IMG/VR virus record: IMGVR_UViG_2526164633_000022
Location: 1 to 63,168 of that record
Length of the DNA: 63,168 nt
DNA from: a virus
Taxonomy: Duplodnaviria > Heunggongvirae > Uroviricota > Caudoviricetes
Reading direction: 5' to 3' (one strand)
Under the pieces are notes generated by a model. That model did not search any database. It saw only the letters and a list, made by a program, of their open reading frames with translations, and was not told the DNA's origin. Numbering within the stretch: position 1 is the first letter of the stretch; every line of letters starts with the position of its first letter. Of the stretch, positions 42,269-43,422 are shown in pieces. A program made the position numbers and the translations under genes.

Positions 42269-42898
42269 ATGAACATACCACCCAGGGCGACTAGGACTGT
42301 TTTTTGTGTCGGTAGCGGTCCATCACTCACTCGTGAGGACTGTGCTGCTATAGAAAAAACTGGCTGTTCAATCATCGCGGTTAACAATTCCTGGCAGATG
42401 TTCGATGACATTTATGCCTTATACGCCGGTGATTTGTCATGGTGGAAGCAATACGGATCCACCATACCGGGAGGGAGATTCCGCAAAGTGACAGCCAACT
42501 TGGCGGCGGCGAAATCATTTTCGTTGGAGTACAGGCGATATTGTGGACCGGCTGAAGGGGTTAATAGCGGCGCGCAGGCTATCAGTCTGGCGGCTGAATC
42601 AGGGGCTGAAGTAGTTGTATTAGTCGGCTATGACTGTTCTCTGCAAAACGGCCTTCATTGGCATGGAGCACACCCTCAAGCCCTACGGAATCCAACGCAG
42701 GTGTCTATTTCAAAATGGCAACAGCAGTTCCTGGATACCCGCAAAAAACACGCAGATTTACATATTTTGAATGCAAGTAGGAGCAGTGCAATTCAATGTT
42801 TCCCAAGAATAAATTTAGAGGCAGTGATCGCGTTATTATCGTCGGCAGTGGCCCAAGCGCCGCAAACTTTGTTGCGCCGCGCGGAGTGCCGATTATAG
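42269..42898 (+). CDS. GxGPS-motif protein, paralogue 1
   Basis: N-terminal VFCVGSGPS...SIIAVN; start chosen at second ATG (track ORF 42236..42898); 3' end overlaps paralogue 2 by 103 nt. Confidence 0.5.
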   Translation: MNIPPRATRTVFCVGSGPSLTREDCAAIEKTGCSIIAVNNSWQMFDDIYALYAGDLSWWKQYGSTIPGGRFRKVTANLAAAKSFSLEYRRYCGPAEGVNSGAQAISLAAESGAEVVVLVGYDCSLQNGLHWHGAHPQALRNPTQVSISKWQQQFLDTRKKHADLHILNASRSSAIQCFPRINLEAVIALLSSAVAQAPQTLLRRAECRL

Positions 42899-43422
42899 CG
42901 GTCAATGGGGCCATCGACTGGCTTAACCGCGCTTCTTATTTTTTCACCCTTGATCCATCCCCAGACAATATGCGGCGCGTTGGTCGTGGCCGCCGTCGCC
43001 GTGGTGTTTGTTATTGCATGGCACTACCCGATGTTAAAGAACGTGAAGTCAGAGATGGCGTTCTGTGCTTCCGTCGTGTGGCTGAACGCGGCACAGAGCC
43101 AAAAAATACGAATTCTCCCGAGTGGTGGGCGTGGCGCTGGTCCGCACATTTCGGCCTTTGCGAAGATGAGAATGAAATTGCCAGCGGCAATAGTGCATAT
43201 GGTGCTCTGAACCTGGCTTTCCATATCGGATTCAAACATGTAGCCCTGGTGGGCGTTGACGCTACGCAAGAACCACGCGTTCACTCCGGCGGCACGCCAA
43301 AAAATCTAAGTCACCTGCCTTTGTTATTCCAGTCTGCGCGTGAACAGATTGACGTTGTTTCATGCGGGAAAATGGGAGGTATTCCGCAGATGACTCTTAA
43401 AGAATGGCTGAAGAATACATGA
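42796..43422 (+). CDS. GxGPS-motif protein, paralogue 2
   Basis: N-terminal VIIVGSGPS...IIAVNG; shared downstream NSG.A..LA and LVG.D motifs. Confidence 0.55.

Follow-up and report, generated by a model that had tools for sequence, protein, structure and literature searches.

The 63,168-nt stretch of viral DNA analysed here (IMG/VR record IMGVR_UViG_2526164633_000022, called the window below) is a P1-like phage. Its overlapping genes pmgO and pmgP are predicted to encode two paralogues with the fold of Maf glycosyltransferases, GT42 sialyltransferases and MptE, and these probably act with the product of the nearby gene pmgQ in a late glycan-building module, a reading to which we give a probability of roughly 0.6. 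A 3.5-kb query around the gene pair is 98.8% identical to P1 (full length) and 98.4% identical to P7, and this near-identity together with the synteny with P1 79592..80778 identifies the two genes as orthologues of P1 pmgO and pmgP. They are placed at 79592..80254 and 80152..80778 in the P1 record AF234172, the counterparts in the P7 record AF503408 are hdmB and hdmC, and both GenBank records annotate the same 103-nt overlap. pmgO, pmgP and their overlap are already known as annotated P1/P7 genes; the P1 annotation gives their role as 'putative morphogenetic function', and RefSeq names pmgO 'alpha-2,3-sialyltransferase' and pmgQ 'glycosyltransferase'. The build and growth of the overlap, the co-occurrence of pmgO, pmgP and pmgQ, the Rosetta-stone fusions and the GT8 assignment of PmgQ are new here. 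The features on which the argument depends are as follows.

42269-42898, plus strand: pmgO (hdmB), Maf/GT42/MptE-like paralogue 1; stop TAG; the GenBank start is the upstream ATG at 42236
42779-42783, plus strand: Shine-Dalgarno (SD)-like AGGAG for pmgP, within the invariant PmgO Ser-Arg codons AGT AGG AGC
42796-43422, plus strand: pmgP (hdmC), Maf/GT42/MptE-like paralogue 2; ATG to TGA; phrog_2111, E-value 3.8e-132
42796-42850, plus strand: dual-coding core of the overlap, in which the PmgO C-terminal and PmgP N-terminal readings are both conserved in homologues
42811-42817, plus strand: A_AAT_TTA heptamer, a candidate -1 slippery site (X_XXY_YYZ in the pmgO frame) judged incidental
42851-42898, plus strand: P1-lineage-specific extension of pmgO by read-through, some 16 codons long, lying over the pmgP GSGPS...PIIA codons
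44093-44794, plus strand: pmgQ (hdmD), predicted GT8-like (GT-A, DxD) glycosyltransferase, from its family profile against AgtA and glycogenin

PmgO and PmgP are single-domain proteins of 208-220 residues. BLASTP aligns them only over the N-terminal V-x-VGSGPS...IIAVN segment (14/36 identities, E-value 0.004), and the profiles of the two families, built from 24 PmgO and 28 PmgP relatives, align in hhalign nearly end to end (164 columns, 96.3% probability, E-value 1.6e-9). The GPS...IIAVN, NSG.A..LA and LxGxD signatures that a first-pass annotation of the sequence had noticed in both proteins are real, since the joint alignment has five motifs common to both families: SGPS, (I/V)IAVN, an invariant Asp, NSG/NSA-x-x-A-x-x-LA and L-x-G-x-D. 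The loop after GxD differs, with an invariant HWHGxH in PmgO and R-x-x-GG, followed later by LSHL, in PmgP. The profile comparisons show the two proteins as ancient paralogues that diverged in a probable active-site loop. A recent duplication, which had been offered as one cause of the overlap, is ruled out, as the paralogues are only about 21% identical and each belongs to a separate family, conserved in several bacterial phyla.

AlphaFold2 models built from 109-sequence alignments have pLDDT (predicted local distance difference test) values of 94.1 for PmgO and 94.9 for PmgP. In Foldseek against the PDB, the top match of both is the Magnetospirillum Maf glycosyltransferase 5MU5 (E-value 3-5e-4, probability 1.0), whose central glycosyltransferase-domain fold is present in both models. 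PmgP further matches the pyrophosphokinase MptE (8SD5), whose fold the models share, the GT42 sialyltransferases of Pasteurella and of Campylobacter (the latter Cst-I/II) and SteA, and PmgO further matches the GT29 enzyme ST6GALNAC2. Structure comparison gives scores of 14.5 for Maf (164 residues, 2.6 A), 12.0 for MptE, 11.4 for Cst-I, 11.2 for SteA, 8.4-10.4 for thiamine pyrophosphokinases and 8.4-9.8 for GT29 sialyltransferases. On these models, PmgO and PmgP each amount to one catalytic domain, with the Maf / GT42 sialyltransferase / MptE (DUF115) fold, and nothing more.

Sequence profiles give fainter matches. PF01973 (MptE-like, DUF115) scores 23.1 bits on PmgO and 20.9 bits on PmgP, over the NSG...GxD segment only and below its 34.6-bit gathering threshold, so that neither window protein is a formal member; 105 of the 109 PmgP relatives match it at E <= 0.1, with a best value of 8.6e-7. 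The Rossmann-like, nucleotide- or nucleotide-sugar-binding, MptE/DUF115-like fold that the first-pass annotation had put forward is thus right at the superfamily level. A merged profile of the two families reaches Cst-II at an E-value of 0.009-0.02, with GNGPS and TSG...LGYKEIYLSGID (GID) aligned, and this GT42 enzyme is its only PDB sequence-profile match; the single-family profiles of PmgO and PmgP return only noise against PDB sequences, with no Cst-II match. In NCBIfam there are only weak matches to the Kdo transferase family WaaZ_KDO_III (TIGR04437), which scores 11.8 bits against a curated cut-off of 200; 26 of the 109 PmgP relatives match it weakly, the best at an E-value of 0.0059. WaaZ, the KdoIII transferase of the E. 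coli K-12 lipopolysaccharide (LPS) core, has by inspection the same motif order (SGPT...IIAVNG...TD...AxxIAxxL...GLD...NLS), but with 12-15% probability in hhalign the relationship is unproven. The PADLOC defence models have no meaningful match.

The known members of this fold differ from PmgO and PmgP in build and context. Maf proteins are flagellin nonulosonic-acid O-glycosyltransferases of about 600 residues with additional N- and C-terminal domains, whereas PmgO and PmgP are the bare domain of about 200 residues, at 12-16% identity; the neighbours of pmgO and pmgP are phage genes, with no flagellin or nonulosonic-acid biosynthesis genes near them. Identity to the GT42 enzymes Cst-I and Cst-II of Campylobacter jejuni is about 13-16%. 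To our knowledge E. coli K-12 makes no CMP-Neu5Ac (the activated form of N-acetylneuraminic acid), and sialyl transfer as such is unlikely in this laboratory host. MptE, the archaeal 6-hydroxymethyl-7,8-dihydropterin pyrophosphokinase on which PF01973 was founded, transfers pyrophosphoryl groups from ATP, and on the strength of the shared fold PmgO and PmgP could be MptE-like or thiamine pyrophosphokinase-like (pyro)phosphokinases with a small molecule or sugar as their substrate, for instance to prepare that of PmgQ. This is unlikely. The best structural match of both proteins is a glycosyltransferase, the only PDB sequence-profile match is to GT42, and the pmg locus has no folate, pterin or thiamine pathway genes nearby; its partners are glycosyltransferases and methyltransferases, a GT8 enzyme and sugar-type methyltransferases being repeatedly fused to the proteins or adjacent to them.

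The overlap of pmgO and pmgP was confirmed as the first-pass annotation had described it, with both open reading frames (ORFs) in place and 103 nt (42796-42898) shared; pmgP is in the -1 frame relative to pmgO, and its frame is open from 42781. That annotation would have been refuted had homologues shown the first paralogue to end before 42796; they do not, as PmgO is conserved up to ...CFPRxNLExxIAxLS at about nt 42850, well beyond that point. PmgP homologues all begin with M-(F/L)-P-x-x-K, about 11 residues ahead of the SGPS strand. Since the PmgO C-terminus and the PmgP N-terminus are each conserved by homology, both frames are supported across at least 55 nt. Junction alignments place the pmgP ATG within the codons of the conserved PmgO motif (Q/T)-C-F-P (cA ATG TTT CCC). 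The arrangement of embedded SD and ATG is held in P1, a Salmonella P1-like plasmid (L101; L numbers designate the compared genome loci), Pantoea (L085) and Chimaeribacter (L086), the last keeping only the GGAG core.

The population set comprises 85 P1-like loci representing 56 haplotypes; they are near-identical P1 loci, and so are informative on polymorphism and not on divergence. Both ORFs are intact in 85/85, with no indel. No site varies among the 56 haplotypes in the overlap's first 55 nt, whereas single-coding parts have about 12 variable sites per 100 nt (Fisher p 0.0018), and this core is genuine dual coding under double constraint. Five sites vary in 42851-42898. All five are non-synonymous in pmgO. 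Read in pmgP, four fall at third positions and are synonymous, and the fifth changes N to S. The last 16 or so codons of pmgO in P1 are therefore an unconstrained read-through tail.

This tail can be traced to the loss of a stop codon. In relatives pmgO stops earlier, in Pantoea with TAG after ...ALS and in the Salmonella plasmid seven codons later. The Pantoea gene ends TCG TAG, and the matching pmgP Val codon is GTA in Pantoea and GTC in P1, which is synonymous for pmgP; the change from GTA to GTC removes the pmgO stop, so that pmgO reads on to 42898. The estimated probability of 15 more stop-free codons by chance is about 0.5. The extra tails are alike between lineages because they are an alternative reading of the conserved PmgP N-terminus. 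Overlap length is 8 nt in L098, 11 nt in L105, 13 nt in L093, 40 nt in L086, 49 nt in L085, 70 nt in L101, 103 nt in P1 and the window, 109 nt in L114 and 157 nt in L113, and the pmgP frame is -1 in every overlap measured. As judged from these comparisons, the overlap is an old family trait that was extended in P1 through stop-codon loss. The locus is a clean example of overlap growth, in which the embedded start fixes the minimum and stop loss adds unconstrained tails of varying length.

A frameshift was the other cause that the first-pass annotation had considered compatible with the overlap. When the window, P1 and P7 are aligned over 1.34 kb, they differ by substitutions only, with 0 internal indels, and with 0 indels in the 85 P1-like loci as well, a sequencing frameshift or split gene is ruled out. 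An annotation or sequencing artefact of any kind, whether an error that splits one gene or a pmgO that ends before pmgP, has a negligible chance of being right. Gene callers do often place the pmgP start 60-100 nt too far downstream, so that the products have 173-186 residues (L102, L103, L114; entries P0122 and P0123), and many database entries are N-terminally truncated, but such calls drop the invariant SGPS motif and avoid the overlap, which marks the late starts as a systematic annotation artefact. P1, P7 and the 85 independent assemblies all have one and the same frame structure, and both protein ends are homology-conserved across the overlap.

A programmed -1 frameshift at A_AAT_TTA, giving a minor PmgO-PmgP fusion beside the two separate products, is very improbable. 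The heptamer is of the canonical X_XXY_YYZ form in the correct pmgO frame, a shift at this point would join roughly the first 183 residues of PmgO to PmgP from residue 6 onward, and an in-frame fusion of the two proteins does occur naturally in another phage (P0282, see below). It is also invariant in the 85 P1-like loci, but dual coding already accounts for invariance within P1, and the heptamer is lost in the nearest non-P1 lineages (ATAAATCTG in L101, none in L085 or L086). PmgO homology runs on past it, and the RNA downstream is no stabler than shuffled sequences (minimum free energy z = -0.74). By estimate, chance alone would place such a heptamer in about 15% of stretches of 39 codons.

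PmgQ alone has no Pfam match. The profile of its family picks up the GT8 enzymes AgtA (E-value 4.9e-8), glycogenin (E-value 1e-4) and GlyE, with the DxD, GDQG and H...KPW motifs aligned, and not the lipooligosaccharide (LOS) enzyme LgtC; five of the 36 family members weakly match Pfam PF01501. PmgQ is predicted on this basis to be a GT8-like glycosyltransferase. PmgQ accompanies PmgP almost constantly: in 13/16 non-P1 genome loci PmgP has a PmgQ homologue no more than about 1 kb away, whereas PmgO occurs in only some of the loci, and PmgQ also adjoins PmgP in L105-L108, L113 and L114. Beside the module are accessory genes for an FkbM-type methyltransferase, other S-adenosylmethionine (SAM) methyltransferases and extra glycosyltransferases. 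The hosts that were identified are all diderm bacteria.

The families are also joined in single proteins. An exhaustive profile search through 1.84 billion representative proteins returned 734 PmgP relatives, among which fusions were confirmed with the hidden Markov models of the families.

P0282: PmgO-PmgP
P0290 and P0360: PmgP-PmgQ
P0365: PmgQ-PmgP
P0339: PmgQ-PmgP-SAM methyltransferase
P0366: methyltransferase-PmgP
P0399, P0414 and P0429: PmgP with a second Rossmann-like domain carrying SGPS/GxD-like motifs (by inspection only)

P0282 is an in-frame protein of 376 residues encoded at L108 5001-6131, on a 61.9-kb phage contig with a PmgQ homologue after it, and has a faint Pfam match to WaaZ_KDO_III. 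It was seen in one sample only, and an assembly artefact is possible. P0290, P0360, P0365 and P0339 are metagenomic.

The position of the module varies among lineages. It stands between the capsid and head-tail connector genes in four prophages (L093, L095, L105 and L106), in a slot with Q, lysis and terminase genes in five (L097, L107, L108, L109 and L111) and beside terminase in L094. In L110 (6001-7298) a PmgP homologue and a downstream gene for 217 residues, a candidate pmgQ by its position, stand alone among ordinary chromosomal genes (SDR, short-chain dehydrogenase/reductase; TetR; MFS, major facilitator superfamily), and phage genes are absent out to 6 kb. The cassette may not be strictly phage-borne.

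The operon of pmgO and pmgP in the window follows that of P1 in having the same gene order (pmgL-M-N-O-P-ppp-Q-R-S), overlap, C1 operator and promoter, and differs from it only by point substitutions. The local order is gp26 (minus strand), pmgL, pmgM, promoter and C1 operator, pmgN, pmgO, pmgP, ppp, pmgQ, pmgR, pmgS. The elements not given above are listed here.

42047-42075, plus strand: sigma-70-like promoter (PpmgN in the P1 annotation), found by scan as GCGACA-17-TAAAAT and matching the annotated PpmgN of AF234172
42079-42095, minus strand: operator for the C1 repressor (Oppp, formerly Op83), which both the P1 and the P7 record annotate; the window has the P7 sequence, one base off P1
42097-42294, plus strand: pmgN (hdmA), a small ORF overlapping the pmgO 5' end; phrog_2350, E-value 2.2e-45, and P1/P7 annotation; the P1 start corresponds to window 42139
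43404-44096, plus strand: ppp, lambda/NinI-type Ser/Thr phosphatase; Metallophos, E-value 8.7e-16

The genes are tightly packed, with overlaps of 26 or 59 nt for pmgN/pmgO (depending on the pmgO ATG chosen), 103 nt for pmgO/pmgP, 19 nt for pmgP/ppp and 4 nt for ppp/pmgQ. Neither candidate pmgO start (42236 or 42269) has a convincing SD before it. Through the C1 operator at its head, the operon comes under lytic control. The neighbours named in the first-pass annotation hold, in that PmgM upstream is VRR-NUC-like and Ppp downstream is a lambda-type Ser/Thr phosphatase, but the nuclease gene is not directly adjacent, as pmgN sits between pmgM and pmgO. The phosphatase gene separates pmgP from pmgQ only in P1-like elements, and because the module of all other lineages is without it, ppp looks like an insertion into the cassette and not a functional member. 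According to PMC10695390, the pmgO/pmgP module is dispensable for laboratory plaque formation, being non-essential both by CRISPR interference (CRISPRi) and in a cited deletion survey, and pmgN is essential by CRISPRi yet non-essential in that survey.

The co-occurrence of PmgP and PmgQ, the O-P, P-Q and Q-P fusions, the sugar-type accessory genes and the late-region contexts together point to a late-expressed, multi-enzyme glycosylation cassette. The embedded pmgP start would couple the translation of pmgO and pmgP and so provide matched amounts of two cooperating proteins, which probably form a complex; the two also occur naturally as one in-frame fusion. Both would be glycosyltransferases, probably using a CMP-activated ulosonic acid. 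In E. coli K-12 the obvious candidate donor is CMP-Kdo (CMP-3-deoxy-D-manno-octulosonate), a reasonable guess because of the resemblance to CMP-ulosonic-acid transferases, the diderm hosts and the recurrent weak WaaZ matches. The GT8-like PmgQ would use a UDP-hexose, and together with PmgO and PmgP it would assemble a short glycan in the lytic phase of growth. The favoured acceptor, as a guess, is a virion protein, because some contexts are capsid-adjacent and because the closest characterised relatives (Maf, AgtA and glycogenin) act on proteins. The nearest functional analogy for a capsid-adjacent glycosyltransferase module is found in mycobacteriophages, whose glycosyltransferases are taken to indicate capsid glycosylation in papers such as PMC11256854; their hosts are Actinobacteria, unlike the diderm hosts of the pmg cassette, and a glycan on the P1 virion has not been reported.

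Several observations weigh against a late glycan-building role. All Pfam and NCBIfam matches fall below curated cut-offs, and the comparison with E. coli WaaZ is weak. The genomic contexts are heterogeneous, only about 4/14 being capsid-adjacent; two modules lie in nucleotide-metabolism regions (L099 and L112), and the P-Q pair of L110 is in a non-phage chromosomal context. The translational coupling is deduced from sequence, and the SD-to-ATG spacing of 12 nt is long. The literature search turned up no biochemical or genetic study of pmgO, pmgP or their families. The main text of the P1 virion proteome paper does not mention pmgO or pmgP, and the P1 cryo-electron microscopy paper reports no glycan on virion proteins, which is weak negative evidence.

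It is possible, though tentative, to describe PmgO, PmgP and PmgQ more specifically as a widespread phage cassette of two single-domain, Maf/GT42-like CMP-ulosonic-acid (probably Kdo) transferases and a GT8 hexosyltransferase, which puts a short acidic glycan on a virion protein or other late target and represents a minimal stand-alone form of a Maf-type protein O-glycosyltransferase. The module may alternatively remodel the host envelope, with the inner or outer LPS core changed by WaaZ-like Kdo and GT8 hexose addition and the resulting loss or masking of the receptor leading to superinfection exclusion or sparing progeny from adsorption to debris. The LPS core is the P1 receptor, and WaaJ and WaaO, two LPS core enzymes, belong to GT8. 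The WaaZ_KDO_III matches, weak but recurrent and including the faint one on P0282, the moron-type slots that the module fills between Q, lysis and terminase genes of several prophages, the stand-alone chromosomal P-Q pair and the exclusively diderm hosts are all consistent with an envelope target. This is a serious rival, though less likely than not, since the P1 operon is C1-repressed and hence silent in lysogens, four contexts lie between capsid and connector genes, the PmgQ profile matches protein-linked GT8 enzymes (AgtA, glycogenin and GlyE) and not LgtC, and the proteins are presumed not to be membrane-associated. DNA was considered as a further target, as phage GT-A/GT8-like DNA glycosyltransferases exist, and was judged unlikely; methyltransferase/5mYOX precursor enzymes did not turn up in a limited Pfam/PHROG annotation of the neighbours.

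Elsewhere in the window, positions 17661-17835 match the Rfam sok antitoxin RNA at 114.9 bits, which indicates a hok/sok-type module between repL and bplB. Only six phage records span these positions completely, and of these one annotates MokW; the module is therefore taken as an insert of accessory type, carried by some P1-like elements. Positions 33591-33648 are a partial tRNA by Rfam (model positions 8-63 of 71), where ARAGORN calls none; similarity to the P7/RCS47 tRNA-Asn region ends near 33645, a pattern suggesting a tRNA-Asn truncated at the breakpoint of a rearrangement. At 13996-14201, and at the gathering threshold, lie the C4 antisense RNA and the a1/b1 sites that it targets (immI region, P1/P7), as expected for a P1-like phage.

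On the glycan-building reading, P1, which is among the best-studied phages, carries a three-enzyme sugar-transfer cassette that recurs, with fusions, in phages and prophages of several phyla. If the more specific cassette description is true, P1 particles would carry a hitherto unnoticed glycan. Identification of the target would give the 'pmg' gene block a function, and could reveal virion or envelope glycosylation in phages of Gram-negative bacteria.

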